Shown in pieces: positions 2,242 to 58,071 of a stretch of 64,000 bases of DNA. The stretch lies in assembly GCA_036004585.1 (NCBI GenBank), contig DASYRH010000030.1, forward strand, positions 2,982-66,981. Reading direction: 5' to 3'. Both the position numbers and the translations under genes were made by a program. This DNA is from Nitrososphaera sp. GTDB lineage: Archaea; Thermoproteota; Nitrososphaeria; Nitrososphaerales; Nitrososphaeraceae. Position 1 is the first letter of the stretch, and the number at the start of each line of letters is the position of its first letter. Under the pieces are notes generated by a model. That model was not told the DNA's origin, made no database searches, and saw only the letters and a program-made list of their open reading frames with translations.

Positions 2242-2352
2242 CGCCCCCCGATAATAAGGTAAATGATTAAAACTACTTTGTAAAATATCTTTCACTAAAA
2301 GTACGATGTACCCTACTCGGGCGCTGACCTTTTAGTCAACTATTTCTTAACT

Positions 2353-2958
2353 TTAGACGAGCACGCCCTGTTCTTGTTCCTGCCTCGCCGCCGGAGAGGC
2401 AGAGGGGACTTCCGCTGGAACTTCCGGTAGTTTCGCCTTGGCCTCGCTCTCAAGAGCCCCTTCGATCTCGTTGAGGATAAGGAGTGCGTCTGCATCCATT
2501 GGAGTTGAAATCCTGGCCTCCGACCTGATGTTTGCATTCAAGAGTACGTCAGTCGTCATGCTGGAAACATCAGAGAAGACCTGATTTGCGGCTGGGATGG
2601 CCTTTGCAATCTCGGACTGGATGCCCCTTATCATCTCGATCGTCGGGTCAATTGTGTCGAGTATTGTGGCAAACTCATTTATCGTGCTGAACCGTATCAC
2701 GATCGCCTCAAGCGCGAGGCTCGTGTGCTGCGTTGTCCTGCGGATCCGCTTCACGTTTGAGAGTTCTGATGCAATTATCTTGGCGCGGGTGTTGTTTCCT
2801 GTTTTTATGTTGCTTACAATCTGCTCGAGAAAGAGTGCCTCCATATTGGCAAACCTCCTGTCAATTACTTTGAGTCGTCCGAGCTGGCCGTGAACTACGG
2901 TAGTTGCGTTGCTTATCTGGCTTACGAACTGCTGACGCTTCTCCGCTACCCCTGCCAT
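2353..2958 (-). CDS. cdvB: ESCRT-III/Snf7 family protein (CdvB paralog)
   Basis: Helical Snf7 core pattern (AKIIASELSNVKRIRR...LALEAIVIRFSTI...IDPTIEMIRGI) with an acidic LPEVP-containing tail. Confidence 0.75.
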   Translation of the reverse strand: MAGVAEKRQQFVSQISNATTVVHGQLGRLKVIDRRFANMEALFLEQIVSNIKTGNNTRAKIIASELSNVKRIRRTTQHTSLALEAIVIRFSTINEFATILDTIDPTIEMIRGIQSEIAKAIPAANQVFSDVSSMTTDVLLNANIRSEARISTPMDADALLILNEIEGALESEAKAKLPEVPAEVPSASPAARQEQEQGVLV

Positions 2959-3095
2959 CTTCTTACACTACTTCGGGCAATGAAAGTTGAAAAAAACCCG
3001 GTGTTGAATACTGTGTACCAAAAGCTGCCATAAAGCTAAGCTACTCTAGAATTTGTATCGCTTTAATAGCATGAGATTGTAACACATCAATTGAG

Positions 3096-3710
3096 ATGGG
3101 CAAGGTCGGCCACGAGGACCATAGCGGCCTTTCAAAGCGTGACCATATCAAGGAACACCTGGGCGCCCGCAAGATAGAGTTTATCTCAACTGCAATAGTC
3201 TGCGTCGTCTTTGCCGCTTGCTTTGCGCACCTTGAGTACTACTACATCAAGGACCCTGCGCTCCAGATTTCAAATGGCGAGGTTGTAGTCATGGACGACA
3301 ATTTTGACAGGAGCAGAGAGACTGAGCCGATAATTGGCAACATGTACCAGTACCACCTGTTCCCGATGCTGTTTATTTTCGTGCTGATTAGTTTTGCCGC
3401 CCTATGGGACGACATACTGTTCATGCTGCTCGGCCGGCACAATAGGGTAAAGGCTGGCCTCCTCGGCGTAGCCAACCTCATCGCCGCCATTCTGATTGAG
3501 GACTTTGCCTGGTTTGCAAACAGGTTTGCGGTGCCTCTTGAAAGTGACCCCAAAGGCGGCCAGCTGATGCAGGCCACGGACTGGACGTCGATGCACCTAG
3601 GCTACATAGACTTTGGGCCCTTTGTGCTACCAGGATGGTATCTTGTCGCGCTGGCCTTTGCAACTATTGCTTACTATAGTGCGTTCAGAAAGCATGACCA
3701 ACTTGGCTAG
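3096..3710 (+). CDS. hypothetical integral membrane protein
   Basis: 204-aa ORF with about 4 hydrophobic segments and an ATG start. Confidence 0.7.
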   Translation: MGKVGHEDHSGLSKRDHIKEHLGARKIEFISTAIVCVVFAACFAHLEYYYIKDPALQISNGEVVVMDDNFDRSRETEPIIGNMYQYHLFPMLFIFVLISFAALWDDILFMLLGRHNRVKAGLLGVANLIAAILIEDFAWFANRFAVPLESDPKGGQLMQATDWTSMHLGYIDFGPFVLPGWYLVALAFATIAYYSAFRKHDQLG

Positions 3711-10624: not shown

Positions 10625-11119
10625 CTATTTCGGTGCCAATAATTCTAGTGTATAGTATCGGCCGCTCACTTCGATCTCCTGGACAAGGATTTCATAGCTT
10701 GGATCTTGTTGTGGGGTTTGTAATTCTAGATCGATTTCCTTTAGAATCGTCTGCGTTTCGCTTTTCGATATTATAACTTCGATGTATGCCGGCTGCAGTT
10801 CTGTATTTTCGGCGACGCGCAATTTGTGTGCCTTGTCCACTGCGGATAGATACTTGTATATTGCAGGGTTTGAGGTGGCAAGTGAATAGTCATCCAGACG
10901 TTGAGGTTCACTATCGCTATCGTCTTGCCGGGTGATTTTCAACAGCGAAGAATCGGAACGCGTCAAAAACGTAGGCAGATCGGAATCAAAGCCTGCCTGC
11001 TGGCCCGGATTCTGCGAGCCATAAGCAGCAGCGGCAAAGATTCCGGCGGCTGCAAGAGTAGACAATGCAATGATCCAAGTGCCGCGCCTCAAACGAATCA
11101 TAAAGAATCTGCTAGTCAT
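10625..11119 (-). CDS. hypothetical exported/membrane-anchored protein
   Basis: Basic N-terminus followed by a hydrophobic helix (WIIALSTLAAAGIFAAAA). Confidence 0.6.
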   Translation of the reverse strand: MTSRFFMIRLRRGTWIIALSTLAAAGIFAAAAYGSQNPGQQAGFDSDLPTFLTRSDSSLLKITRQDDSDSEPQRLDDYSLATSNPAIYKYLSAVDKAHKLRVAENTELQPAYIEVIISKSETQTILKEIDLELQTPQQDPSYEILVQEIEVSGRYYTLELLAPK

Positions 11120-13766: not shown

Positions 13767-15293
13767 ATGATGTCCGGATCAAAACCGGCTCTGTCAGCGT
13801 TGGCTCTACAGAATGAACTCTTTAATGCACTGTCCTATGCGACTAGCAACAGGTTTCAGATTCATCCCGACGCATTCGCAATGCTCAGAGGCCTCGACGA
13901 TGACATTCTGAGGATTGTGCAGGAAATAGTCAAGCTGAAAAAAACAGGCAAAAATTCGGTAATCATGATCGAAGATATCAAGAGCTTTCTCAATCCAGGG
14001 AGGGCCCATGAGCAAGAAGCATCTACTGAGCAAAGCTGCAATGTCATCATGGATCCAACCCCAAATGTCGCGACAGGTGAGGGTGTGGAGGGCTATGCTG
14101 CGCTATTTCACAGCAGATTTGAAAAGACAATGAAAATACTCTCCCAGCGGCCCGATAGCAAGCGAATCTCCAAGGTTGCATCAGTCAAGCAAAACTCTAG
14201 GAACGGCTCAAGGACACAATCGGAAAGAGGTGAGCGCAGCCAAAACGGTGGTTCTACTACGATCGTTGCCGGGCTATTGATGTCAAAGCGATCAAAGAAG
14301 AATGGTGTAGAACTTGCAGTCGATGACTACACCGGCACGCTGTCGGTGATGGCAACTACGGAAGATGCGAAAAAACAAGCCGCGTCTCTTGCGCTTGATC
14401 AGATGGTCATGCTAGAGCTTGAGAGTGGCAAGGGTGCTCCCGGCTTGACCGTCAAGAGCATAATAGCGCCAGACATTCCAGACCACTTACCAGGCAGGAG
14501 CAGGTCAGAATCCTACGCGGTACTGATCTCTGACTTGCACGTCGGAAGCAAATTTTTTATGCAGACCGAGTTTATGCGCTTTCTTGAATGGCTTTCTTCC
14601 ACTGAAGACGAAATTGTGTGCAAGATAAAGTTCCTTTGTTTTGGAGGCGACTTGATCGACGGGATCGGAATATTTCCAAACCAAGATAAGGAGTTGGTCG
14701 AGCTGAACGCTGTAAAGCAGATGAGCCGGGCTACAGATCTGCTTGCAATGGTCCCAAAACACATCAAGATGTTTGTGATACCGGGGAACCACGACCCTGG
14801 CAGGCGCGCCCTTCCACAACCGTCTATCCCGAGAAGAGATCTTGCGGACAAACTCTATTCGCTAGAGAACTGTGCCATGCTGGGAAATCCAGCTTTTGTA
14901 GAGCTAAACGGCGTCAAAGTTTTGATGTACCATGGGCAGAGCCTTGACGATGTCATTGCATCTACTCCAGGTTTGAGCTATTCCAAGCCGGCAGAGGCGA
15001 TGAAAGTGCTTCTAAAAGCGCGGCACTTGTCTCCAACCTATGGGGAGCGCACGCCCATCGCGCCAGAGCAGGAAGATATGATGGTGATTTCTGAGGTCCC
15101 TGACATTCTTCATTCTGGCCATGTTCATGTAGTCGACATCCAAAATTACCGGGGCACGCTTATTGTTAATTCAGGCGCTTGGCAGGCGCAAACGAAATTC
15201 CAGCAGACAATGGGTGTTACTCCGACGCCAGGCATCGCCGTCGTCGTTAACCTGGCGACTCTCCAGCCATTCCTTCAGGATTTCAATCAATGA
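13767..15293 (+). CDS. polB: DNA polymerase D small subunit DP1 (proofreading exonuclease)
   Basis: OB fold plus calcineurin-like phosphoesterase motifs ISDLHVGS, GGDLIDG, PGNHD, YHG and HSGHVH. Confidence 0.95.
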   Translation: MMSGSKPALSALALQNELFNALSYATSNRFQIHPDAFAMLRGLDDDILRIVQEIVKLKKTGKNSVIMIEDIKSFLNPGRAHEQEASTEQSCNVIMDPTPNVATGEGVEGYAALFHSRFEKTMKILSQRPDSKRISKVASVKQNSRNGSRTQSERGERSQNGGSTTIVAGLLMSKRSKKNGVELAVDDYTGTLSVMATTEDAKKQAASLALDQMVMLELESGKGAPGLTVKSIIAPDIPDHLPGRSRSESYAVLISDLHVGSKFFMQTEFMRFLEWLSSTEDEIVCKIKFLCFGGDLIDGIGIFPNQDKELVELNAVKQMSRATDLLAMVPKHIKMFVIPGNHDPGRRALPQPSIPRRDLADKLYSLENCAMLGNPAFVELNGVKVLMYHGQSLDDVIASTPGLSYSKPAEAMKVLLKARHLSPTYGERTPIAPEQEDMMVISEVPDILHSGHVHVVDIQNYRGTLIVNSGAWQAQTKFQQTMGVTPTPGIAVVVNLATLQPFLQDFNQ

Positions 15294-16500
15294 GTGTAGA
15301 GAATGTGGGATCTTCCTTGAGGGCCTCTCTCAAAGTTGTGAGTGGGATCTTTATTCTGATTTTCTGTGATCTTCCGTAGCGCCCTTGGTTCACCACGTCG
15401 GTTGTGACCAGGCCCAGCAGGTCTAGTTTGCTTATCATCTGGGTGACTCGGCGCTGTGTAAGCGGATCTTGTTCGGCCTGCTTGCAAAATGAAGAATATG
15501 CGTTGTAGACGTCTCCGGTAAAGCCGTCCTTTGATTTTGCAATCGCAATTATTACCAGCTTCATGTGCGCTGGTGCGTTTTTCAAAAGCACATAGGGCGC
15601 ATCTCGTTCTATTTTTTCCTGCGCTGCTCTTACATGTTTTTCATCAACTTTCGGCGCGCTTTCTCTTTCAGCAATCTCTGCTCCGACTCTCAGCAGGTCT
15701 ATTGCTTTTCTTGCGTCGCCATGTTCCCTTCCAGCCATCGCAGAACACAGATTGATAGCAGCCTCGGTGATGGCCCCGTCGGTGAAAGCGATTCTGGATC
15801 TTTCATGCAGTATCTGGCGCAGTTGCTCTATAGTATATGGGTTGAAAACCATTTCCTCCTCGCTAAGGCTGCTGCGAACCCGCGGGTCCAGCTTGTCTTT
15901 GAAGTCTAGGCTGTTTGATATTCCGATAAGTGAGATGAATCCTCCCTTGGCCATCTGCTGGTTTGCTCTTGTGAAACTATAGAGAACGTCGTCGCCGCTC
16001 TTGTCCACCAACGAATCTATTTCGTCGATGACGAGGATAAGGCCAAGTTTTTTCTTTTGAATATATTGTAGAATTCTGCTCATTGCTTCGCCGATTGAAA
16101 GACCGGTGAATGGCACTTGCTTTGTATTGTCTTGTTCTTGGTTTAGTCCAAGTTCCTCAGCGATCTCAAAAAGCACTTTGTACGCAGTGCTTGCACCCTT
16201 TGCATTGACATTAACTGCTTGAACTCCGGATTTCATTTCCTTGGCTTTCTTTGCAAGCCTTTCTACAACTTTCCTTACTACGGCAGTTTTGCCAGTCCCA
16301 GGTTCGCCAAATAGTAACAGGTTTGACGGCCTTGAACTCCTAAACACCGTCGACAGTACTTGGGCAACGGCGTTTTCTTCCTGCTCTCTGAAAGGCAATC
16401 TTTCTGGGACATAATCTATTGTTAAGGCCTGCCGGTTTCTGATGAGCGACTTCCCACTTGCGGCGTTGTTGAAAATGTTGTCGATATCAGAAGAGCTCAA
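15283..16500 (-). CDS. cdc6: Orc1/Cdc6 replication initiator
   Basis: Walker A GEPGTGKT, Walker B IDEID, GDARKAIDLLR and C-terminal wH (GRYGRS). Confidence 0.96.
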   Translation of the reverse strand: MSSSDIDNIFNNAASGKSLIRNRQALTIDYVPERLPFREQEENAVAQVLSTVFRSSRPSNLLLFGEPGTGKTAVVRKVVERLAKKAKEMKSGVQAVNVNAKGASTAYKVLFEIAEELGLNQEQDNTKQVPFTGLSIGEAMSRILQYIQKKKLGLILVIDEIDSLVDKSGDDVLYSFTRANQQMAKGGFISLIGISNSLDFKDKLDPRVRSSLSEEEMVFNPYTIEQLRQILHERSRIAFTDGAITEAAINLCSAMAGREHGDARKAIDLLRVGAEIAERESAPKVDEKHVRAAQEKIERDAPYVLLKNAPAHMKLVIIAIAKSKDGFTGDVYNAYSSFCKQAEQDPLTQRRVTQMISKLDLLGLVTTDVVNQGRYGRSQKIRIKIPLTTLREALKEDPTFSTLID

Positions 16501-16538
16501 GTGCCATATACACCACTAGTTGTAATTTTAACCCGCCG

Positions 16539-16710
16539 CCACCCCTACCTTTCTTATCCAAGAAACAAATTTCTTAACTTTACCTTAACAGGCATGTTAA
16601 CACGTCGCTTTTAACAAGCCAAATCAATTTGTACTCATTATCATATCAAGATAATGATCTTTTGATTTTCAAGCTTAGAGACAGGTCCTGCATAGGAAAG
16701 GTAGGGGTGG
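16539..16710. repeat. perfect 15-bp inverted repeat flanking the AT-rich region
   Basis: CCACCCCTACCTTTC (16539-16553) and GAAAGGTAGGGGTGG (16696-16710); resembles the GAAAC...GGGGT half of the ORB. Confidence 0.8.
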
Positions 16711-16788
16711 GCCCGGATCCAAATAATGCAAGTCGATTGTCTACTGTTAACTATCTAGATCAATTCAATGAAAAACGGCTCAAAAATG

Positions 16789-16809
16789 ACCCCTCTGTTT
16801 CCACTGGAG
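16789..16809 (-). promoter_or_regulatory. origin recognition box (ORB) 1
   Basis: Minus strand reads CTCCAGTGGAAACAGAGGGGT, matching the archaeal ORB consensus TCCAGTGGAAAC plus G-string. Confidence 0.9.
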
Positions 16810-16850
16810 CGTTAAGGTCGATCGTTAACAGTGTTAAGACCCCGATCTAC

Positions 16851-16871
16851 ACCCCTTCGTTTCCACTGGAG
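16851..16871 (-). promoter_or_regulatory. origin recognition box (ORB) 2
   Basis: Minus strand reads CTCCAGTGGAAACGAAGGGGT; direct repeat of ORB1, 62 bp away. Confidence 0.9.
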
Positions 16872-17040
16872 CACCAAAACGGGTGTTTTTTACTAGAAAT
16901 GTGGTTAACAGGAACGGCGAGTTAACGAAAAAAGCTATCGTCTCATGCAGTGTTAACATTAGCTAAGCTGGTTGTTATCACCCTTGACAGAGCTGTTGTT
17001 AAGTGTTAAGCAGTTAACAGGTCAAGCTACCTTTACTAAA

Positions 17041-22768: not shown

Positions 22769-24136
22769 CTACGCTTGGTTTGAAGCAGGAGAAACAGTAG
22801 TTGAGACCGGGCTTTCACCGTCTACAAAGGTTTTGTATATGCTGATGGCGTCTTCTTCGTCTTTTGCACCGACAATAGTCGCTGCTCCACTTGACAGGAA
22901 ACTTACAGACATTCTTCCAGTGTTTACGGCAGTGATTCCCAGATTGCCCCTTGTCTTGACTTGGTAGCCCAGCGACTCGGCGTTTTTGACAATTCCACCA
23001 AGGTTCACCGGAACAGGCTCTGATGGCGTAACGGTCCAGGTTCTCTTGCCTCTGTCTCTTCCACAAAGCTCTTCAATAATGAGCTTCGAAACTGAAAGGC
23101 TGACCTCCTTCCTTGTCGTACCGCATGAAGGGCATTCGTCCTGCTTGAACATCTGAACCCTATCAAATGAAAGCTCGTTGAGGTCGACGTAGAGGAGCTT
23201 GTTGGCAAGCGTAGGCTCTTTGCCCATGATCAGCTTTACTGCCTCTGACACCTGGATGCCGGCTACAAGGTACAGAATTGACGGGTGTACTCCTTCTGTG
23301 CTACACGCCGGCATTTCCTCTTCATTTAACTCGGGGAACATGCAGCGCAGGCACGCAGATTTGTTTGGCAAGATTGTAGACACCGAACCTGTTACTCCAA
23401 GGGCGCCGGCATAGATCAACGGAATATTGTGCTTTATGCACGCATCGTTTAGCGCATACCTCGCGTCAACGCTGTCAAGTGCGTCAATCACAATGTCAAA
23501 GCCCTTGACGATGCTCTCTGCGGTAAACTTTGTTACCGACGTAGGCACAGGCTCGACCTGGACTCCAGGGTTAATTCTGCGCAGCCGCTCTGCCGCCGCT
23601 TCGACCTTTACCTTGCCAATGTCGTCGTCCGTGTAAAGATGCTGCCTGTGCAGGTTGGTAACTTCAATGACATCTCTGTCAACTATGCGCAGGCTTCCTA
23701 TTCCCATTGCTACCAGCTGTGTAATCACGGGGTTGCCGATGCCTCCGGCGCCAACGACGCAGACCTTTGCGTTTCTGATCTTCTCCATGCCCTCAAAGCC
23801 TATTTCCTCAAGCATAAGCTGCCTAGAGTAGCGCTGGATTTCATCACTCGTCAGCTCTGCGCCGCCGGCGACTGCTGGTAGCACGTAAACAGAGTCGCCG
23901 TCCTTCAGCGGAGCTGACAAGCCGCCGCTAAAGCGCATGTTCTTGCCGTTAATGTAGATATTGATAAGCGAACGGGGCTTGCCGTTGTGATCAAAGACCC
24001 TGCGCTTAAAGTCGTCGCCTAACTGATCCGAAATTCTATTAAATGCATCCTGCAAATCGGCAGCTTCGAGTGGGATCTTTTTCTCTCCCTGACCTCTGTT
24101 CAACACTGACGGGATTACAAATTCTACCTTCGCCAA
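22769..24136 (-). CDS. ubiquitin-like (MoaD/ThiS/SAMP) + E1-like (ThiF/MoeB/UbaA) fusion
   Basis: Beta-grasp domain ending PAVAGG (aa 92), then RYSRQ, GAGGIG, CLRC, PACSTEG and CPSC. Confidence 0.9.
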   Translation of the reverse strand: MAKVEFVIPSVLNRGQGEKKIPLEAADLQDAFNRISDQLGDDFKRRVFDHNGKPRSLINIYINGKNMRFSGGLSAPLKDGDSVYVLPAVAGGAELTSDEIQRYSRQLMLEEIGFEGMEKIRNAKVCVVGAGGIGNPVITQLVAMGIGSLRIVDRDVIEVTNLHRQHLYTDDDIGKVKVEAAAERLRRINPGVQVEPVPTSVTKFTAESIVKGFDIVIDALDSVDARYALNDACIKHNIPLIYAGALGVTGSVSTILPNKSACLRCMFPELNEEEMPACSTEGVHPSILYLVAGIQVSEAVKLIMGKEPTLANKLLYVDLNELSFDRVQMFKQDECPSCGTTRKEVSLSVSKLIIEELCGRDRGKRTWTVTPSEPVPVNLGGIVKNAESLGYQVKTRGNLGITAVNTGRMSVSFLSSGAATIVGAKDEEDAISIYKTFVDGESPVSTTVSPASNQA

Positions 24137-24142
24137 ATCATG

Positions 24143-25360
24143 TCACCTTATCATCGCCGCGACCAGTGCGGCGTCCGGCTTGACAGCAGTAAGTTTTGGC
24201 AAGAGTCCTATAATCGCTTCTGTAGTTTTCAGCCCGTTGCCCGTCACATAGCAGACGGTACTCTCGTCCTTGTCTATCTTGCCCTCCTCAACTAATTTCC
24301 TGAGGACTGCGACCGCCACGCCGCCTGCAGGCTCTGTGAATATGCCTTCGGTCCGCGCGAGCAGCAATATGCTGTCGCAGATTTCGGCGTCATTTGCTTC
24401 CTCTGCTATTCCGTTGTACTGCTTTAGCCGCTTTAGAACGTACATGCCGTCTCCGGGATCTCCTATGGCAAGGCTCTTTGCGATTGTCTCTGGGTGCTCG
24501 ATTGGAATTATTTCGTCGCTGTTGCGTTTGAACGCATCCACAACAGGCGCACAGCCGTGCGGCTGGGCCGCGATTATCCTCATCTCTTTGGGGCTGTCAA
24601 TGAGACCAAGTGAATGAAGCTCTTCAAAGCCTTTGCAAATTGCGTTGAGCATCGCTCCGCTGCCAACAGGGATTATCAGGTTGTCCGGAATCTTCCAGTC
24701 GAGCTGCTCGGCCACTTCATACGCAAGGGTTTTGGAGCCTTCCACATAGTAGGGCCTCATGTTGATGTTGACTACTCCAATGCCTTTAGAGTCGCCTATT
24801 ATTGACGCCACCCTGTTTGCGTCGTCATACGTTCCTTCGACTGCGACAAACTGTGCACCGTACGAAAGCGCCTGGGCTATCTTTACGTGCTCTAGGTCAG
24901 ATGGCGCAAAAATGTAGCAGGGAAGCCCGGCCTTTGCCGCGTGAGCGGCAGTAGCAGAAGCCAGGTTGCCAGTTGATGCGCAGCCCACCGCCTTTAGACC
25001 TGTCTCCTTGGCCCTTGAAACCGCAACGCCGGCCGGCCTGTCCTTGAATGAAAAAGTTGGATTAACCGAATCGTTCTTGACATACAGGGATTTCAAACCC
25101 AGACTTGTACCCAGCTTGTCTGCAAGCTGGAGCGGAGTCAGACCTGCATTAAGACTAACGATATTCTTCTTGTCGGCTATGGGCAAGAGCTCAAAATAGC
25201 GCCAATAGGTTTTCTCTCTCAGCTCAAAAGTCTTTCTGTCCACCTTGACGTCCTTGTAGAGGACGTCGAGGGGACCGAAACATTCTTCACACACATAACG
25301 AAATTGCGGATCGTATTCCTTTCCGCATTCCCTGCACTTTAGTGACCTGATATTTCCCAT
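24143..25360 (-). CDS. thrC: threonine synthase-like PLP enzyme
   Basis: N-terminal CRECG...CEEC ribbon, PLP lysine in NPTFSFKDR, ASTGN, PVGSG, EPAGG and TGNGLK. Confidence 0.9.
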   Translation of the reverse strand: MGNIRSLKCRECGKEYDPQFRYVCEECFGPLDVLYKDVKVDRKTFELREKTYWRYFELLPIADKKNIVSLNAGLTPLQLADKLGTSLGLKSLYVKNDSVNPTFSFKDRPAGVAVSRAKETGLKAVGCASTGNLASATAAHAAKAGLPCYIFAPSDLEHVKIAQALSYGAQFVAVEGTYDDANRVASIIGDSKGIGVVNINMRPYYVEGSKTLAYEVAEQLDWKIPDNLIIPVGSGAMLNAICKGFEELHSLGLIDSPKEMRIIAAQPHGCAPVVDAFKRNSDEIIPIEHPETIAKSLAIGDPGDGMYVLKRLKQYNGIAEEANDAEICDSILLLARTEGIFTEPAGGVAVAVLRKLVEEGKIDKDESTVCYVTGNGLKTTEAIIGLLPKLTAVKPDAALVAAMIR

Positions 25361-25385
25361 GACTTTCTATCCTCGATCAAAATGG

Positions 25386-25412
25386 ATGTGATTAAAACTT
25401 CGCTAATCACAT
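25386..25412. promoter_or_regulatory. candidate operator palindrome upstream of thrC
   Basis: ATGTGATTA-N9-TAATCACAT perfect 9-bp arms, 26-52 bp upstream of the thrC ATG. Confidence 0.45.
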
Positions 25413-25524
25413 TTTAGTATTACTAAATTTTTTAGCGGATATATGTTGTGCCACTTAACTTCCGATGCTTCACATTTATTGGAAAATTAGCAAATTAGCA
25501 GAGAATTTACCTAAACCTAGCCAC

Positions 25525-25866
25525 CTATTTCAAAATATTATGGAAACAAGACCTGTTCCCAGTGTGGCAGGCAGGCTTGTCTGAATCAACCATGTATAGA
25601 ATAGCATCTGAGTCACAGTCTATCAATATCTCGTACACAGGTTGGACGTTGCCTGATTCCTCGCCCTTCATCCAGAGCTTGTTTCGAGAAGTGCTCCAGA
25701 ACCAGGCCTTTCCTGTCTTGACGGTGTTCCCCAAGGCCTCTTTGTTGGCATAGGCCATCATGAGAATATCCTTGGTCTTTCTATCCTGCACTATCACAGG
25801 CAAGAGCCCGTTTCTCTTCTCAAAGTCAATGTCCTTGAGACTCTTTGCGTTCATGTGGGTATGCAC
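25525..25866 (-). CDS. hisI: phosphoribosyl-AMP cyclohydrolase
   Basis: WSTSRNKLWMKGEESGN, IDCDSDA and ACHTGNRSCF motifs. Confidence 0.95.
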   Translation of the reverse strand: MHTHMNAKSLKDIDFEKRNGLLPVIVQDRKTKDILMMAYANKEALGNTVKTGKAWFWSTSRNKLWMKGEESGNVQPVYEILIDCDSDAILYMVDSDKPACHTGNRSCFHNILK

Positions 25867-25981
25867 ATATTTGCAGCGAGGGCTGAAATAAATCTATAGA
25901 GTCAGTTCAAGTGTTTTAAACAGGATAAGCAAGAAAAAGCTACACACTAGCACTTTTCGGCATTTGCGGCAAGGTACCCAA

Positions 25982-26599
25982 ATGCGTACACCCAACAAGG
26001 TTCAACTAGCGTCAATCTCAGCGGCATTTATCCTTGCGGGCTATATCGCAGCTACGGCGGGAATGCAGTCCAGTTCTCCACAATCGCTGGACCTCCCTCC
26101 GGTATTGGTTGCAGATGCAGCGGCAGTGGACTATTTTCTAAAGATTGAAGGAATCGACGGAGAGTCAACGAGCGATACTCACAAAGACCAACTTGAAATA
26201 GATTCGTTCTCCTGGGGCATGTCAAATTCTGGTTCAATGGCTGCAGGAGGTGGTGGTGGAGCCGGAAAGGTGAGCTTTTCATCTTTAAAGTTGACGACCG
26301 CGATCAGCAAGGCATCGCCAAAGCTGTTTGAGGCGTGCGCCACAGGAAAGCACTTTCCAACAGCTACACTGACTCTTGTGAATTCAGAACAACGTGACCT
26401 AGAATTCATGAAGGTAACGCTGAGCGATGTGATCATCAGCTCGTACCAGACAACCGGCACGTCAGGAGAATCTCCCGCCGAGAGTTTCAGACTGAATTTC
26501 GCGAAAATTGAATACGAGTACACACCGCAAAAAGCTGACGGAAGCATGGACGCACCTGTCAAGGCAGGGTACGACCTGGCGTTAAACAAGAAGGTCTAA
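25982..26599 (+). CDS. hcp: Hcp1-family (T6SS tube-like) protein with N-terminal signal/anchor
   Basis: YFLKIEGIDGES, HKDQLEIDSFSWG, SKASPKLFEACATGKH, VTLSDVIISSY, ESFRLNFAKIEYEY and GYDLALNK, preceded by a hydrophobic helix and polar linker. Confidence 0.88.
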   Translation: MRTPNKVQLASISAAFILAGYIAATAGMQSSSPQSLDLPPVLVADAAAVDYFLKIEGIDGESTSDTHKDQLEIDSFSWGMSNSGSMAAGGGGGAGKVSFSSLKLTTAISKASPKLFEACATGKHFPTATLTLVNSEQRDLEFMKVTLSDVIISSYQTTGTSGESPAESFRLNFAKIEYEYTPQKADGSMDAPVKAGYDLALNKKV

Positions 26600-26702
26600 T
26601 CGACCTCCGTCATTTTATTTTCCAACAAACTCGTCCTCTTTGTTTTTGTCAATCCCAACTTCTTCAACAGACATATATTCCCCCTTTGCAACACATGATG
26701 TC

Positions 26703-26825
26703 AGCGGGGTGGGGAAGCCAGATCCTGACCCTAACGGAGGAGGCTAGGTTATCCCGGCGGGCTCATAACCCGCAGAGCGGTGGTTCAACAGAATTTAGAA
26801 AATTCGGAAAGTCCACCCCCCGCTA
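26703..26825 (+). tRNA. initiator tRNA-Met(CAT) with two non-canonical introns (26722-26747 in D-loop; 26790-26811 in T-loop)
   Basis: A1:U72 acceptor AGCGGGG/CCCCGCT, anticodon arm GCGGG-CTCATAA-CCCGC. Removing the 26-nt and 22-nt BHB-bounded inserts gives a 75-nt cloverleaf. Confidence 0.9.
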
Positions 26826-28133
26826 CGTTTTCACATTCTGAAAATTATTCTTTTCACGCCCATATCTCTGCAAGGGCTTTGTGAGGTGGCGGTGGGCTTT
26901 CGGAGTAGGGATGTACAATCCCGGCCTTAGGTCGCGCATTTTGGGAATGAGGATTTTTGACGCTGTGATATCCTTAAACTTGCATCTGTCGCACTGGTAC
27001 CCCTTGCCTTTCCCTTCCGACTTCATTCGCTTGCCGCATACCTTGCAGAGGGGATTTTGCGTTTCAAATGTCTCTGCAACTTTCAAGACGTGAAGGTATT
27101 CAACGTTGAGGATCTTTGGATGCTTTGTCGTCCCCTTTCTTACCCCGCAACCGATTTCAATAAAGTCGGCGGGTTCTAACTTTGCAGCGACATTTGCAAG
27201 TCCTGTGGGTTCGTAGATGGCGGCTGGCATCTGCGCGCTCCCTTGTTCAACAGTGAAAATGACGTGACCTCCTTCAATTGCAAGGGGGGTTGAAGCTACT
27301 TTGCAGCGGACATAACCTGCGGTGTAAGCCTTGACCCCTGCTATCTTTAGCTCATCTTGCAGGTGGATGTTCGTCCCCTGGTTCGATCTAAATACCATCC
27401 AGCCGTCAAGCTCTTCTTCTGGTTGAAGTGAAGTTATCGCCGAAGATACCACATCGAAAGTTTCACCTCTGATGCCAAAATAGACTGGGTCCGGCCCATG
27501 AGGTGCGATTAGTATCCGCCCGTGCTTGCTATCATAATTGTTGAATGTATTTGGATAGGTTTCTTCGCTAAACTTGATGACCTTTTGCTTGTCCACAATT
27601 CGCGGCTTGCCGCAATTATCTTGTTTTCTGTACGCAATTAGCTCGTAGGTAAAATCTGTATCGAGCATCAGGCTGCCCATTGCTCCAAGCGAACCCACAA
27701 GGCCCTGCCCGTTTCCATAGGTGTAGTAGGTAATCCCATTATCGTCGGCGACTTTTTCGGCCATTTGCCTGCTCATCACGTCGCACATGACTGCAGCGCT
27801 AAATCGCTGCAAAGCTGGAGGGATGTTTTCGCCAGAAAGGAACGCAACGCCAGGATTTGCTCCGCAGCCGATTGCAGATCCCGACTCCACGGCCTGCCTG
27901 ACATAATCCATGACTCTGCCCGCGTCGCGCACTCCTGCTCGCAGGCAGACGGCCCCATTGCCCCTTGTCTTCCAGGGAATGTTTGGGTTAAGCCTAATCA
28001 AAAGCGGGTTATCGACAAGTTCAGCATCCATCTTTTTCAGGTGCTCCACTACCTTGAAGGCAAGATGTGTTGTACAGCGACCTGTCCGCGAGTCAGTATC
28101 GTCAAATGCAATGTGGAGCATCTCACGCGACAT
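26823..28133 (-). CDS. tiaS: tRNA(Ile2) agmatinylcytidine synthetase
   Basis: FDDTDSRTGRCTT, NPNIPWKTRGNGA, PHGPDPVYFGIRG, SNQGT, OB fold and Zn ribbon. Confidence 0.95.
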   Translation of the reverse strand: MSREMLHIAFDDTDSRTGRCTTHLAFKVVEHLKKMDAELVDNPLLIRLNPNIPWKTRGNGAVCLRAGVRDAGRVMDYVRQAVESGSAIGCGANPGVAFLSGENIPPALQRFSAAVMCDVMSRQMAEKVADDNGITYYTYGNGQGLVGSLGAMGSLMLDTDFTYELIAYRKQDNCGKPRIVDKQKVIKFSEETYPNTFNNYDSKHGRILIAPHGPDPVYFGIRGETFDVVSSAITSLQPEEELDGWMVFRSNQGTNIHLQDELKIAGVKAYTAGYVRCKVASTPLAIEGGHVIFTVEQGSAQMPAAIYEPTGLANVAAKLEPADFIEIGCGVRKGTTKHPKILNVEYLHVLKVAETFETQNPLCKVCGKRMKSEGKGKGYQCDRCKFKDITASKILIPKMRDLRPGLYIPTPKAHRHLTKPLQRYGREKNNFQNVKT

Positions 28134-30194: not shown

Positions 30195-32132
30195 ATGCCA
30201 GCAGCAGCTATCTCAAAATTTGTGAATCAAAGCGAAATTGATGAATCTTACAAGAGTCTGTCGCCAAACCTGGGCGGAAAAAAGGACAACTATTTCGGAG
30301 TCCTTTATCTGTCCAAGAAATTCAACATTGCTCCAGGTGAAGCCGCCTCTTTTGTAGCGGTAGATGGAACGACGGACGCAGGAATAGACGCGTATTACCA
30401 TGACATCGACAAGAAGACACTGTACCTGTACGTCTTTCGTTGGTCTGAGGACCATATCCAGTTCAGGGAGCCGCTCGAAAGGCTGGGAATGAACGGGATA
30501 AGCAAGATCTTTTTCGATCTGACAAAATCAGAAAATGATCATCCGCTTATTGTTTCGCTCAAGACCAGCCTGTTCGAAAATTGGAAGTCCATCGACCGCG
30601 TAGTGATCGACTTTGTTTTTAACGGCGACCCTGTTGACGCCGAGCAGAGCAAGGTGCTAAGTTTTCTCAGGGAGACGGTAGAAGACAAGCGCAGCTTTAT
30701 CGAAAGCTACCTTAGCAGGATAGGCGAGTCGCCAGGACTGCACGACCTCATATTCCACTACGTGTCAAACGTAAACGCCCTTGGAAACATCACTTCATCA
30801 CGTCAGACTGCTGAATACATCATAAACTTTGACGGTTCACTTGCTATTCCACCAACCCGCGCTGACAGCACTGAAGCTGGGATAGGCGGGAACCAGATGA
30901 CCGTGACGTTCCTCTCATTGGCGGATCTCCACAGAATGTATAGCGACCTTGGAGAGCGCTTTTTTGAAAAGAACCTCCGCTCCGGCCTTGACGAAGGCGA
31001 GATGACAAACATCCATATCAAAAACTCCCTACGGACGATACTTGAACAGCAAGAGGATCCGCAGAATTTCACTCTATATCACAACGGCATAACGCTGACT
31101 GCGCAGATACTCGAAATCAACGGTCCTTCAAGCGTGAGGATGGTCGAGCCAAGGATACTCAATGGCGCGCAGACCGTCAAGATAATCAAGCAGTTCGTAG
31201 ACGAGGAAACCCACAGGCAGCAGCGGGTGGCCCAGAAAGGCAAGAAGCGTCAGGCAACATCAAAGCACGCTGGAAAGGGAGAGGCCACCATAGACGACAA
31301 CAACAGGTTGCTGGCTACTGCGACAGATGCGCCGTCTGGTCTTCAAAGGATGCTTGAAGAGACAAAGGTGATGGCAAGGATTATCCAGTCAAAGGACGAC
31401 GAGTTTCTGCAGAGGGTCACCATAAACAACAACAGGCAGAACCCTATAATGCCATGGAACCTCCGGGCCAACGACCTAGTACAGATAACCTTTGAAGAAA
31501 TTTTTGCAAAACACGGCATCTACTACGAACGAAGGGAAAATGCCTACAAGAACATCATGGAAGAGGACATTGAAGGCAGCCTTGACGCCGAAAAAGGAGT
31601 TGTAGAGATCCGCAAGTTTGCACAGACGCTGCTCGCAGCTCGAGGGCAGGTGGACAGGATTTCAGAAATGAAAGAAGTCTTTGAGAGCGAAGCCTGGTAC
31701 AAGGACGCCTTCAAGGAAGGATCCGTCGACATTGAGCCGAGAAAACTGGTGCTGCTCTACAAAGTCCAGTACAGGTTGCAGAGCGTTATCAGAGAAATTA
31801 GAAGCCAGGGTGCAGACAAGTATGGATACGCGCCAAAGGCCAAGAACCTGATCTGGTGTCTTACGATTCAGGGATTGCTGAACGACAGCAAATTCGACAA
31901 GCTAGTGGAGACGTACGGCAACTCCACAGGAGTCGAAGCCGGCTTTACAGAGCTGCTAAAGAAACTTGCCAGCACAAAGATCCGGTTCATACTGAGCGAC
32001 ACGTTTGACACCAAGAAATATCGCGACCAGATGGCTGAAGGCAAGTTCTCGTTCCTGAAATCAAAGACAGCACTTGCGGACTGCATGAAGGTCGCGCGCA
32101 CGCGCTTTGACTGGGAAAAGCGCTCCCTATAA
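30195..32132 (+). CDS. AIPR family protein (abortive-infection/phage-resistance associated)
   Basis: DAGIDAYY, FFEKNLRSGL, FTLYHNGITL, ILNGAQT and NNNRQNPI motifs. Confidence 0.85.
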   Translation: MPAAAISKFVNQSEIDESYKSLSPNLGGKKDNYFGVLYLSKKFNIAPGEAASFVAVDGTTDAGIDAYYHDIDKKTLYLYVFRWSEDHIQFREPLERLGMNGISKIFFDLTKSENDHPLIVSLKTSLFENWKSIDRVVIDFVFNGDPVDAEQSKVLSFLRETVEDKRSFIESYLSRIGESPGLHDLIFHYVSNVNALGNITSSRQTAEYIINFDGSLAIPPTRADSTEAGIGGNQMTVTFLSLADLHRMYSDLGERFFEKNLRSGLDEGEMTNIHIKNSLRTILEQQEDPQNFTLYHNGITLTAQILEINGPSSVRMVEPRILNGAQTVKIIKQFVDEETHRQQRVAQKGKKRQATSKHAGKGEATIDDNNRLLATATDAPSGLQRMLEETKVMARIIQSKDDEFLQRVTINNNRQNPIMPWNLRANDLVQITFEEIFAKHGIYYERRENAYKNIMEEDIEGSLDAEKGVVEIRKFAQTLLAARGQVDRISEMKEVFESEAWYKDAFKEGSVDIEPRKLVLLYKVQYRLQSVIREIRSQGADKYGYAPKAKNLIWCLTIQGLLNDSKFDKLVETYGNSTGVEAGFTELLKKLASTKIRFILSDTFDTKKYRDQMAEGKFSFLKSKTALADCMKVARTRFDWEKRSL

Positions 32133-32160: not shown

Positions 32161-33693
32161 CTATTGAAGGGGCGTTTCTACGCCCTCAACTTTTGCTGAA
32201 GTCCACTTCAGATTCTTTCTCCTGAATGCTACATCAAGTACTCCCTTTATGATTATCAGGTCCACCAGGTGCTTGTAGCCTATTACCATCAGAGGTGAAT
32301 ACAGCACCAGCTTCCAGTCGTCTTCTTGATCGATCAATAGCGCCATCGAAGATAGGACAAACTGGAGCGACGTGAAGAGCACAAATGAAAAGAGCATGAA
32401 CATCCACATCCCCTGAAGGATTGCAACTATTCCCGCTGCGCCAATAACGATTCCAAGAATCGGGAGCATCAACATCGTCAATACCGTTATCGGGTACCCG
32501 TATTTGCGGAGCATGCCGTACCTGGCGTTGGTCGCGATGTCCTTGTGCTTGATAAAAGTCTGCATGTTGCCTCGATACCAGCGGATGCGCTGCTTGTAAA
32601 AGTCGCCCAATTTTTCAGGGGCCTCCGTGTAAGCCATCGCGCCAGAGCTTGCCTGTACAACTTTTCCGCACTTTAACGCCTTTACCGTGATATCGAAATC
32701 CTCAGTCAGCGTATCCTTGTCATAGTTGCCGGTCTGCTGGAGCACCCGCTTGTTAAACGCGCCTAGCGCGCCGGGCACAACCATTACAACGCCGAAAACG
32801 TCAAAGGCCCTCCGCCACAGGTTTATTCCCACTAGGTAGTCCAGAGCCTGGCAGTTTGTCAGAAGGCCAACTCGGTTTAGCACTTTAACGTTGCCACCGA
32901 CCCCTGCGACGCTCGGATTTTGGAAATAGCTGACTATGATCTTGAGGGCATCCCTTGCTACCACCGAGTCAGCATCCACCGTTACAACATACTCGCCTTT
33001 GGCAAAGAGCAGCCCGTGGTTAATTGCTGACGACTTGCCGCCATTTTCGGGTTTTCTTATGACAGAGTAAAGAATACTTTCGTCAAACCTTTCATGGAAT
33101 TTTGAAGCTTCTGCAAAAGTCTTGTCAGTGGAACCGTCGTCAACCACTATTACTTCCTTCTTTGGATAGTCCGCTTCCGCAAGCGAGTTGAGAGCTTTTC
33201 CCACTGTCCGCTCTTCGTTGTATGCCGGGATAATGATGGTAATCAGCGGAAAGGATGCAGGCGGCCTGACCCTACTTTCAAGCCTCTTGTGGTAAATGGT
33301 CAGCGGGACATTAAGAAACGTGTACATGAAAGTCAGAGCAAGGCTAAAGGAAACAACACCCATGTAGATAGAAAATTCAGAGCCGAAATAGCTGCCAACC
33401 TCAAACGAGTAAACGGCTGCAATGGCAAGCGGCACTAAAAACACGCATAGATAAACGGCGGCTATTGAAACGCGCTTCTGCCCGCCGGTTCGATCGCCCC
33501 TTTTCCACGATGCGAGGAGGTAGGCGCAAAAGATCATGACTGCAACCATTGAGGCCAGAAAAACAAATGTCCCCATGACAACGGTGATTATCACCGCGAC
33601 CAGAAACGGAATTACGGCAAGCGCGACGAGTTTGGCTAGAAGCGATCTCGTTGCCCCTGCCACACTATCATCTTCCTTGTTGACCCTCGTCAT
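32161..33693 (-). CDS. processive GT2 glycosyltransferase (PgaC/IcaA-like)
   Basis: IIPAYNEE, VVDDGSTD, GKSSAIN, DAD, TLTEDFD, QRIRW and multiple TM helices. Confidence 0.9.
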   Translation of the reverse strand: MTRVNKEDDSVAGATRSLLAKLVALAVIPFLVAVIITVVMGTFVFLASMVAVMIFCAYLLASWKRGDRTGGQKRVSIAAVYLCVFLVPLAIAAVYSFEVGSYFGSEFSIYMGVVSFSLALTFMYTFLNVPLTIYHKRLESRVRPPASFPLITIIIPAYNEERTVGKALNSLAEADYPKKEVIVVDDGSTDKTFAEASKFHERFDESILYSVIRKPENGGKSSAINHGLLFAKGEYVVTVDADSVVARDALKIIVSYFQNPSVAGVGGNVKVLNRVGLLTNCQALDYLVGINLWRRAFDVFGVVMVVPGALGAFNKRVLQQTGNYDKDTLTEDFDITVKALKCGKVVQASSGAMAYTEAPEKLGDFYKQRIRWYRGNMQTFIKHKDIATNARYGMLRKYGYPITVLTMLMLPILGIVIGAAGIVAILQGMWMFMLFSFVLFTSLQFVLSSMALLIDQEDDWKLVLYSPLMVIGYKHLVDLIIIKGVLDVAFRRKNLKWTSAKVEGVETPLQ

Positions 33694-34816
33694 CCTTTGG
33701 CCGGCTAATAATGGTCCTTAGCATCTTTTCTAGGCTCATGCTTTCAGTGTCGGGCTGCTCCGGCTTTGGTGCATCTTCCTCCCTCATCGAATCGATCATC
33801 TCTTCTAGCTGCCCGTCTGAAACCAGTCCCTGCGGCATGCCTGTCGAAATTTTGTCCGCAATTTCCTGCACGTCGCTACCACTTGATTCAATTATTTCGA
33901 TTCCGTGTGCCCCGGCAAGTTTCCTTGCTTCTTCAGAAAATCCGGGAATTCCGATGAACACCTTCCTCCCCACCTTGGCGTCGAGGCACCTTGCTAGAAA
34001 ATTCAAGAGCAATTCGGGATCCACTGGATCGCTGGACTTTTCGATGTCGACCGCAACTGCCGGCTCGGGCTCATCGCCCACATAGGCAACGATGTCAAAA
34101 GTATGCTGCACCTGGGAGGAGCCTATAACTGCCGCCCTTGGCGCAGCGTTCACACCACGGGAGCGCAGAGCATCCACTACTGAGAGATGAAATTGAAAGC
34201 CGGTCTTGTCCAAGTATTTCGCCACAGCCTCTTGGTCAACTGTGTATGCTGCAAGCGGCTCGAGTTTCATCTCTTCTTTTGCCAGCGAACTTCCGCAATT
34301 GAGGCAGATAAACTGCATCTTGCCTTCGGGGGAAAGCGTCTTGCATGAAAGGCACGAGCAATAAGACCCGGGCTTAACATAGTCGACTCCTATGGCCTTT
34401 AGCTTTTTCTTGCATTTTGGGCAGACCAGCCCGCCTTCAGCCGTCTGAAACCTCGATTCAAGATCGATATTTCCGCAAGGCAGGTGTTCAATTACCTTGC
34501 CTTGGTCAGTGTTTGTAGAACCGCATGCGGGGCAGGCCACTTTTACCACCATCCCATGGTGATCGCATCTGCTGCATTTGCGAATATAGTCAAACGGCTC
34601 CTCCTTTACTATCCCAAGTACCTGAAGCGTCTTTAGGATGTCAACCTGCCTGGCAAAGTCGTGGTCGGAAAACCCCGTGTAGGTTAACCCTCCTTCGGGC
34701 TTGACTAGGGGCTCGTATCTCGAGATCTTGTTTTCCCTTATCTCCGCTATCTTGGATGTTATGGCACTGCTATCAGATCTGCCTGGAGGGGACGTAGCAA
34801 TCACTCGAGAACGCAC
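33668..34816 (-). CDS. TackOD1-like Zn-binding domain + restriction-endonuclease-like fold
   Basis: CPACGS...VIEHLPCG...CPKCKKKLKAIGVDY...CLSC, followed by GSSQVQHTFDIV...AVDI and EEARKLAGAHGIEII. Confidence 0.75.
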   Translation of the reverse strand: MRSRVIATSPPGRSDSSAITSKIAEIRENKISRYEPLVKPEGGLTYTGFSDHDFARQVDILKTLQVLGIVKEEPFDYIRKCSRCDHHGMVVKVACPACGSTNTDQGKVIEHLPCGNIDLESRFQTAEGGLVCPKCKKKLKAIGVDYVKPGSYCSCLSCKTLSPEGKMQFICLNCGSSLAKEEMKLEPLAAYTVDQEAVAKYLDKTGFQFHLSVVDALRSRGVNAAPRAAVIGSSQVQHTFDIVAYVGDEPEPAVAVDIEKSSDPVDPELLLNFLARCLDAKVGRKVFIGIPGFSEEARKLAGAHGIEIIESSGSDVQEIADKISTGMPQGLVSDGQLEEMIDSMREEDAPKPEQPDTESMSLEKMLRTIISRPKDDEGQQGR

Positions 34817-56928: not shown

Positions 56929-58071
56929 CTAGCGCTTGTAATGGGTCCAGCTAACTTTTCTTTTTCTATGCTCAACTTCTGTCGCGACAGGCTTTCTCAT
57001 TATGAACAGATATTTGAAGCCCCGCAGGTAGAAGTTAAATCGCAAAGCGCGATTGTGCCAGATCCCGGTGTTTGACGCCTGGCTTCTCCTTACGACAGAG
57101 ATAATGTCGACAGTCTCAAATCGCGTAGATAGCTGGTCGTAGATGCGAAAACCTACAGGCGTGAACTTCTTTTTGACCCACTGATCGCCTATGAGCCATC
57201 CTATGACCTTGCCTGGCCTTAAGACGCGATGACACTCCTCGATCACTTTATCAAGTGCTTGATAGAATTCTTCAGACTCTGCGGAAAGCTTGCCTATGTT
57301 GTCAGGTTGATTGTTGTAATCAATATTGTCACCATATGGTGAATCGATAAAAATCATGTCAATGGTGTTGTCATCAAGGGGCAACCTGCGCGCGTCATTT
57401 CGCTTGATGTCAGCGCGTGTAGGCGATACGTCAAAAGCAATCACCTTTCTTCCCTCCTCATTGCACACGTCTATTGTGGTGCCGCTTCCAGCCATAGGGT
57501 CAAGAACAGTGTCTCCCGGGTCGGTATATCGCCAGACCATGTTGTATATGACAAAGGCAGGCGTGACACCAGCATACTTGTTGCTTCCCTTTGGCGTCTT
57601 GCCGTAGCTCTGTCGAGGGAAATCCCAGAGCGTGGTGGATGCAAGCTTTGGCTTTTCGATTTCACTATGCTTCTTGACATGAGCAAGCAAACTATCGTCG
57701 CGATTCTCAAGATACTTTGATAGTGCCAGAGCTATCTCTGAATCGAGTGGATCATGCCAGCTTGGCCCCAATGTAGAAATGATCTTTTTCGCGCCATTGA
57801 CCGAAACGACCTTGCCATTTCTCTGAACCCGCACTTGGTAGGGATACTTGCCTTTCCAGGCATCAGGGACCAAGTCTTTTCTACCATCCGTTTTTGCCTT
57901 AAATGTGCCATAGAGGGTGTCGGTGTCAATGTTGAGAAGGAATAGCACATCACCTTTCTTTATCTTCAAAACATTTTCGCCGTAGAGTTTGTTCGTTGCA
58001 AATAGCAGGCGGTCAAAGCACTCTTGTTCGCTCTTGGAGGTGCAAGCAAGGATGAATCCGCGCTCTGCCAT
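56929..58071 (-). CDS. DCD domain + amino-(N4C/N6A) DNA methyltransferase fusion
   Basis: N-terminal GFILAC...QECFDRLLF...LFLLN...LYGTFKA...PDAW...YPYQVRV (DCD-like); MTase motif I DPMAGSGTT and motif IV IDSPY. Confidence 0.8.
   Translation of the reverse strand: MAERGFILACTSKSEQECFDRLLFATNKLYGENVLKIKKGDVLFLLNIDTDTLYGTFKAKTDGRKDLVPDAWKGKYPYQVRVQRNGKVVSVNGAKKIISTLGPSWHDPLDSEIALALSKYLENRDDSLLAHVKKHSEIEKPKLASTTLWDFPRQSYGKTPKGSNKYAGVTPAFVIYNMVWRYTDPGDTVLDPMAGSGTTIDVCNEEGRKVIAFDVSPTRADIKRNDARRLPLDDNTIDMIFIDSPYGDNIDYNNQPDNIGKLSAESEEFYQALDKVIEECHRVLRPGKVIGWLIGDQWVKKKFTPVGFRIYDQLSTRFETVDIISVVRRSQASNTGIWHNRALRFNFYLRGFKYLFIMRKPVATEVEHRKRKVSWTHYKR

Follow-up and report, generated by a model that had tools for sequence, protein, structure and literature searches.

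To our knowledge, Hcp has been described solely as tube and effector carrier in a contractile injection machine of bacteria, namely the T6SS (type VI secretion system). Specialised ('evolved') Hcps, in which the Hcp domain is followed by a C-terminal toxin, are still delivered by the T6SS. Fusions of Hcp1 are also mentioned in the literature (PMC3482391). Our literature search returned no study of Hcp in Thaumarchaeota, nor of exported or tandem Hcp proteins, and the matches for 'hcp' together with Nitrososphaera concerned hydroxylamine reductase or were unrelated. Here we describe an Hcp gene in a stretch of 64,000 nucleotides from Nitrososphaera sp. (assembly GCA_036004585.1, contig DASYRH010000030.1, positions 2,982 to 66,981 of the forward strand; the whole stretch is hereafter called the window). 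The gene encodes a complete Hcp1-type domain behind a conserved N-terminal leader and belongs to a large family whose proteins are already labelled as Hcp in databases and which, as a putatively exported family, is apparently unstudied. We consider it rather probable that the product leaves the cytoplasm by the Sec route and forms an Hcp ring, tethered to the membrane or set free from it, that operates independently of the T6SS.

The gene is an open reading frame (ORF) of 205 codons plus stop at 25982-26599 on the forward strand. Its ATG at 25982 agrees with the starts of its homologues (MRTPNK or MRTPSK), more than 70 of which share this start at 100% coverage. The initial annotation had described a near-canonical Hcp1 sequence behind MRTPNK, a hydrophobic helix and a polar linker, and this description is borne out. 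Pfam T6SS_HCP (PF05638) covers aa 52-180 with E 3e-40 (score 137.9 bits, cut-off 23.5; profile positions 1-129 of 129) and is the only family that Pfam returns for the protein at E up to 1; the cut-off of NCBIfam TIGR03344 (VI_effect_Hcp1) is narrowly missed (55.9 vs 58.9 bits). The best solved structure by sequence is Pseudomonas aeruginosa Hcp1 PA0085 (1Y12; E 4.8e-42, aa 45-202). An AlphaFold2 model built on a 90-sequence alignment has a pLDDT of about 90 over aa 48-205 and below 50 at aa 1-47 and at the glycine loop 85-92. When this model was compared with 1Y12 by Foldseek, the target-normalised TM was 0.92 and the rmsd 1.7 Å over 161 residues, and the top matches were Hcp structures without exception. 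The beta-barrel domain (aa 47-205; 26120-26596, +) contains 45 near-invariant positions that are common to bacterial Hcps. The Nitrososphaera protein is a bona fide Hcp1-type domain in an archaeon. Identification as the tail tube protein of a phage or of an eCIS (extracellular contractile injection system) was considered and rejected, as Pfam gives T6SS_HCP only and the window has no tail genes. Also rejected was an antisense ORF of 136 aa inside the gene (26179-26589, -), which recurs in related loci by BLAST and is the shadow of the conserved Hcp frame.

The leader totals 46 residues and reads, in order, MRTPNK, VQLASISAAFILAGYIAATAG, GMQSSSPQSLDLPPVLV and ADA, after which the domain opens with AAVDYFLKIEG. 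Its features were compared across 72 full-length family members, to which the family values in this paragraph refer. The n-region MRTPNK (aa 1-6; 25982-25999, +) is positively charged, with a family mean of 1.56 K/R and 0.06 D/E. It is followed by the hydrophobic helix VQLASISAAFILAGYIAATAG (aa 7-27; 26000-26062, +), a candidate signal-anchor or h-region. This helix has 21 uncharged residues in the window protein. The family median for the uncharged span is 20 aa, a length that matches a membrane helix and not the core of a short signal peptide; its Kyte-Doolittle mean is 1.93, and Q8, A10, S11, I12, A14, A15 and L18 are 80-90% conserved. Small residues occur after the core (A-T-A-G in the window protein; ASMQ, SAWQ and FATK in relatives). 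The linker (aa 28-43; 26063-26110, +) is polar, acidic and rich in Pro, Gln and Ser, and it lies in the part of the model with pLDDT below 50. In the family, the segment between helix and Hcp domain has a median of 20 aa and carries on average 0.5 K/R and 2.56 D/E, with P33, Q34, L36, D37 and P39 about 70% conserved.

The leader ends in A44-D45-A46 (26111-26119, +), an A-x-A motif that abuts the domain about 17 residues beyond the helix and is a candidate processing site. The A-x-A-A junction before V49-D50-Y51 is nearly invariant: the first A is found in 70 of the 72 proteins, the middle residue is D, E or Q, the third is A or G in 71, and the following A is present in all 72. In relatives whose signal peptides are short and canonical, these end in ...AFA|A at this very junction. 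Since leaderless bacterial relatives begin MAAVDYF, cleavage after A46 would restore the N-terminus that mature Hcps usually have. The basic n-region, the uncharged core and the acidic linker fit the positive-inside rule, and this charge distribution predicts an N-in/C-out topology with the Hcp domain outside. When a regular expression for the leader motif was applied to the other proteins of the window and of related loci, it matched Hcp genes only. As a separate observation, a 164-aa protein of the window (10625-11119, -) that has no Pfam match starts with an N-terminal helix, after which comes SQNPGQQAGFDSDLPTFLT; the latter bears a loose likeness to the Hcp linker (Q..Q.LD.P..L), whether by shared architecture or by chance.

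With its short basic n-region and, after it, a conserved helix of some 20 residues headed by a conserved Gln, the leader also recalls a class III (type IV pilin-like) signal, which would make the Hcp domain the head group of a surface filament, and Nitrososphaera encodes type IV pilus machinery (PMC6563490). But the residue before Q8 is V, F, Y, M or T and never the G or A that prepilin peptidases require, a Pro-rich linker of 17-20 residues separates helix and domain, and no pilus genes lie nearby, all of which makes a pilin-like fibre subunit very improbable.

Selection and expression were assessed for the leader and the domain separately. Pairwise Nei-Gojobori estimates, for which only pairs with unsaturated dS were used, gave dN/dS values of 0.37-0.52 (helix), 0.26-0.44 (linker) and 0.055-0.086 (Hcp domain). 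The value for the helix indicates that this segment is coding. The leader is thus coding and moderately constrained, and the domain is under strong purifying selection. Contigs from soil metatranscriptomes that are 90-96% identical to the window cover 25990-26215, 26025-26359 and 26209-26666, that is, one begins at 25990, one extends to 26666, and the helix codons are included; the Hcp gene is transcribed. Its GC content of 0.50 equals that of the neighbouring genes, which argues that the gene is not a recent insertion. A bacterial-type gene that stands alone in an archaeon could be a decaying or misassembled product of horizontal transfer without function. Against this stand the dN/dS of 0.055-0.086, the more than 70 intact homologues in conserved synteny, an independent contig that spans the junction without differences, the transcription of the gene and the GC match with its neighbours, and we regard a dead gene as extremely improbable.

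The genomic surroundings of archaeal and bacterial Hcp genes differ. For comparison, all ORFs of at least 100 aa within 10 kb on either side of 75 bacterial Hcp genes were collected and matched to the window. In these bacterial neighbourhoods TssC was found in 64 of the 75, TssB, TssA, TssE, TssF or TssG in 49-60 (confirmed by Pfam), and ClpV was common. Beyond Hcp itself, the homologues of these ORFs in the window amounted to a generic methyltransferase, an ABC ATPase and a cyclase. A Pfam scan of the 50 largest ORFs of the window returned archaeal housekeeping families, with sheath, baseplate, VgrG, PAAR and tail genes all absent. Within the 64-kb window, no gene of a T6SS, an eCIS or a phage tail was found, in agreement with the initial annotation, which had reported no vgrG, PAAR, sheath or baseplate genes there, and T6SS genes were also absent from 12 related archaeal loci.

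A system encoded elsewhere in the genome deserves consideration, since 64 kb of the host genome are in view. The Hcp could serve as tube protein in an unlinked T6SS, eCIS or prophage tail, made from an internal start at M28 or with its leader bypassed. Some database gene calls indeed begin at the MQ... position, and a phage-type sheath homologue of 521 aa is tabulated for the chromosome of Candidatus Nitrososphaera evergladensis SR1 (PMC9230969). The leader speaks against this explanation. Among the 72 full-length homologues M28 is about 30% conserved and no internal Met is conserved, whereas the helix upstream of it is conserved, under purifying selection and contained in the RNA contigs; these results also speak against the possibility, raised at the outset, that the true start might lie downstream of the helix. 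In addition, relatives with canonical signal peptides that abut the domain cannot be cytoplasmic, and no T6SS homologue occurs in the window or the 12 archaeal loci. The tube proteins of phage and eCIS tails normally belong to families other than PF05638, which likewise counts against an unlinked system. We judge this explanation quite improbable.

The initial annotation had called the protein an orphan, a description that does not survive the comparison with other genomes. The window protein can be aligned over its full length with more than 70 others (198-215 aa; 50-95% identity), each of which has the leader. They come from metagenome-assembled genomes (MAGs) of Nitrososphaera, from Ca. N. 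evergladensis SR1, whose genome is complete, and from Ca. Nitrososphaera sp. FF02; the orthologue in N. viennensis EN76, likewise a complete genome, has 212 aa and lies on a 2.53-Mb record (P0392). Three conserved housekeeping contexts can be distinguished, and the assembly accessions of the loci compared are all different. The first, ThiF-thrC-hisI-Hcp, is that of the window and of loci L005 and L008. The second, Pelota...Fe-repressor-TrmB-Hcp-radical SAM, occurs in L003, L004, L006 and L007. The third, DUF72...Hcp-small protein-PhoU_div-PHO4, occurs with variants in L001, L002, L032, L090, L092 and L093. In the N. evergladensis-type locus a conserved, Cys-rich protein of about 755-780 aa without a Pfam match is encoded directly upstream of Hcp on the same strand (L001 7646-9910, L032 4437-6779, L093 3611-5920), and a conserved protein of 157-175 aa is encoded downstream of Hcp. 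The window has no counterpart of either of these neighbours. An Hcp-like ORF upstream in N. evergladensis (L001 9358-9954) was discarded as an alternative-frame artefact.

The family has also diversified. In the hisI-linked sublineage of L008 (10001-10618; protein P0070), the leader is near-identical to that of the window protein and the Hcp domain has diverged much more, with 59% identity overall; in P0070 the GGGGGAGK loop is missing. A functional shift or recombination among copies may lie behind this. Two further proteins, P0031 and P0036, belong to this sublineage.

Beyond Nitrososphaera, a search of 1.84 billion cluster representatives gave 12,584 Hcp-family matches, and the 150 nearest of these clusters (at 50% identity) were used for class statistics. 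Single-domain relatives accounted for 72 of the 150, and among these a hydrophobic leader was present in 44 and absent in 24. The remaining clusters have two (16), three (7), four (4), five (4), six (46) or seven (1) Hcp domains per protein. Chains of 1, 2, 3 or 6 domains thus make up 141 of the 150, an excess that a six-fold ring would predict. Leader-bearing relatives include proteins labelled Patescibacteria (P0080) and Verrucomicrobiota (P0452), and the one cluster for which taxonomy was resolved in the six-domain and short-signal-peptide classes is Verrucomicrobiota. A class of 182 aa with a canonical signal peptide ('MSKFWLIPLVF...AFA|A') lies on a 38%-GC, Nitrosopumilaceae-like contig, where the neighbouring AlkD is 78% identical to a protein of a Nitrosopumilaceae MAG. 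No T6SS genes were found in the loci examined for the leader-bearing and tandem classes (L085-L089).

Several features of these relatives are recorded here in their own right. The Nitrosopumilaceae-like contig (L085) carries two adjacent, divergent Hcp genes with signal peptides (2174-3548); the 246-aa Hcp ends in two C-terminal repeats of W..DG.I...DF..GI.Y....GI, and a repeat-rich protein of 636 aa is encoded downstream on the same strand as the 182-aa Hcp. Dozens of proteins of 900-3650 aa (P0241-P0304) have exactly six tandem Hcp domains, some with extra C-terminal domains, and many six-domain proteins carry an N-terminal '...LE.R.LLA/S' motif, which we take to be typical of secreted proteins of Planctomycetes. 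Judged by their sequences, the six-domain proteins look like single-chain, pseudo-hexameric Hcp rings.

As for the origin of the archaeal gene, the leaderless Hcps most similar to its product, at 50-64% identity, are T6SS proteins of soil bacteria (Acidobacteriota, Gemmatimonadota, Planctomycetota and others). The phylogeny against bacterial Hcps that the initial annotation had proposed places most archaeal proteins in one clade nested among bacterial Hcps, with other leader-bearing Hcps nearby, in a neighbour-joining tree whose internal branches are very short and which has no bootstrap values. The gene was probably acquired from soil bacteria with Hcps in T6SS clusters, and then kept and diversified in Nitrososphaera.

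The same relationships lend themselves to a defensive explanation, according to which the exported Hcp under the S-layer would be a decoy that captures effectors from T6SS-armed soil bacteria, that is, a sponge and not a structural ring. Cognate effectors are bound in the lumen of Hcp, the T6SS Hcps of soil Acidobacteriota, Gemmatimonadota and Planctomycetota (50-58% identity) are the nearest relatives without a leader, and several diverged lineages exist within Nitrososphaera. Yet a dN/dS of 0.05-0.09 indicates strong conservation and not the diversification of an arms race, and killing of archaea by T6SS is not documented in the literature searched. We therefore regard a decoy as decidedly unlikely. 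Together with the unlinked system, the pilin-like fibre and the dead gene, it is less likely than an exported, T6SS-independent Hcp ring. The latter is preferred because the domain is intact, the leader conserved, the gene under selection and transcribed, T6SS genes locally absent, and the family broad.

What we infer for the translocation, topology, cleavage, oligomeric state and function of the archaeal Hcp is as follows. The leader would send the protein through the Sec translocon such that its N-terminus stays cytoplasmic while the Hcp domain ends up outside. The domain would fold at the membrane's outer face, beneath the S-layer, and assemble into six-fold rings, as is usual for Hcps. Such a ring might remain tethered by six helices through linkers of 17-20 residues, or be freed by cleavage, either just past the helix (A-T-A|G) or at the A-x-A|A junction, where a cut would give a mature N-terminus of AAVDYF. 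Outside the cytoplasm, the ring could act as a binding or scaffold module, which is the least supported step.

A number of points weigh against this model, for which the evidence is computational throughout. The argument for export draws on rule-based sequence features only, the A-x-A junction is farther from the helix than a signal peptidase I cut usually is, and AlphaFold gives no confident structure for aa 1-47. Some gene callers start at the equivalent of M28 (P0014, P0056, P0084), and a cytoplasmic short form is possible. The genome of this organism is viewed through the 64-kb window, the tree has the short branches described above, and no conserved partner gene that would hint at a cargo was found.

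A wider proposal, which we offer as speculation and consider unlikely, is that exported Hcp rings are a widespread extracytoplasmic device free of the T6SS, built from chains of one, two, three or six domains, and in ammonia-oxidising archaea a cage or conduit for small proteins tethered by six helices, or a sponge for effectors that T6SS-armed soil bacteria inject, under the S-layer. If this were true, the tail-tube fold would have a second, independent use. More generally, a conserved, expressed, leader-bearing Hcp in abundant nitrifying archaea of soil, with no injection machine encoded nearby, together with its relatives, suggests that the Hcp ring is also put to use outside the cell membrane. 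The subject bears on the reuse of bacterial genes by archaea and on the poorly known cell envelope of ammonia oxidisers, and the idea is directly testable, since the cultured model N. viennensis EN76 carries an orthologue.

The window is archaeal, as it encodes both PolD subunits, Orc1/Cdc6, TiaS, PcrB and a TackOD1 protein, in addition to a Pst phosphate transporter; the nearest Hcp homologues bear the name Nitrososphaera, and the window sequence is present in soil metagenomes. The possibility of a chimeric contig at Hcp was rejected: a single contig from a second, different soil sample spans 24000-26684 with zero differences from the window, and the hisI-Hcp order recurs in two other Nitrososphaera assemblies. 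Read depth is even on either side of the junction, and contigs break only at the tRNA described below.

The initial annotation had named hisI and an initiator tRNA-Met as neighbours. The former stands as described: hisI (phosphoribosyl-AMP cyclohydrolase; 25525-25866, -) is the divergent upstream neighbour and matches PF01502 (PRA-CH) with E 4e-34. The latter needs qualification. Neither ARAGORN nor Rfam (at its gathering threshold) detects any tRNA in the unmodified window, but at 26703-26825 (+) ARAGORN calls tRNA-Met(CAT) after brute-force removal of two intron-like insertions, one in the D arm (about 24 nt) and one in the T loop (about 21 nt). The gene therefore has two non-canonical introns. 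Read from the sequence, the tRNA has A1-U72 ends, as in initiator tRNA. Its core (26746-26781) is conserved and has high depth in soil metagenomes. Further downstream lies TiaS (26823-28133, -), identified by Pfam.

The regions that flank the Hcp gene contain several candidate signals. TTTAAA at 25915-25920 (+), about 62 nt upstream of the ATG, is a candidate archaeal TATA box read from the sequence; it is kept in L005 and partly in L008. Closer to the gene is a conserved block AAAGCTACACACTAGCACTTTTC at 25936-25958 (+) with the inverted repeat GAAAAAG...CTTTTC. This block of 23 nt (AAAGCTACAC.C.AG..CTTTTC), 24-46 nt upstream of the Hcp start, is near-identical in L005 (2838-2860) and L008 (9955-9977), in the latter despite a protein identity of 59%, and is absent from the other 87 loci; it may be a transcription start, a hairpin in the 5' untranslated region or a regulator site. 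A small hairpin that overlaps the stop codon and is followed by T-runs (26592-26621, +) is a terminator-like match and a candidate terminator. A scan for sigma-70 promoters was uninformative for an archaeal host.

Elsewhere in the window, possible defence-related genes are scattered, namely an AIPR protein (30195-32132, +), a TackOD1-Mrr protein with a restriction-endonuclease fold (33668-34816, -) and a DNA methylase with a fused DCD (development and cell death) domain (56929-58071, -). The genes of the PolD small subunit and Orc1/Cdc6 are adjacent and convergent (13767-16500) and are followed by an ORF-poor region at about 16500-16970, a possible replication origin.

Among the known systems, P. 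aeruginosa Hcp1/TssD (PA0085, 1Y12), the inner tube subunit of the T6SS, is one of the closest to the archaeal protein. The two share about 45% identity over the whole domain, the same fold, the glycine-rich loop GGGGGAGK and the 45 near-invariant residues of the family. However, P. aeruginosa Hcp1, the product of a T6SS cluster, begins with Met-Ala-Val-Asp, without a leader, and its loading is cytoplasmic, whereas the archaeal protein has a 46-residue leader and no T6SS gene nearby. The T6SS Hcps of soil bacteria (for example L009-L013, P0083, P0106) are 50-64% identical over aa 47-205 and share the motif (M)AAVDYFLKIEG, but they have 160-162 aa, lack the leader and are flanked by TssB/C/E/F/G/A and ClpV. 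In comparison with the evolved Hcps, which carry a toxin at the C-terminus, the archaeal extension is N-terminal and is an export or anchor sequence.

Polypeptides attached to the N-terminus of Hcp are found in the engineered proteins GspE-Hcp1 (4KSR/4KSS), Vps4-Hcp1 (6AP1) and TrwK-Hcp1 (7O42), and in these solved fusions Hcp1 is the C-terminal end of the chain. They are artificial cytoplasmic constructs and not natural membrane leaders. We take them to have been built to impose hexamers on the partner, and the C-terminal position of Hcp1 therefore suggests that N-terminal attachments are compatible with the ring. The leader-bearing and tandem Hcps from metagenomes (the 182-aa class, P0080, P0452 and the six-domain P0241-P0250) resemble the archaeal protein in having an export signal, an A-x-A junction and no T6SS genes in the loci L085-L089; they differ in that their leader sequences are unrelated, many being short signal peptides that abut the domain, and in that others have two, three or six domains.

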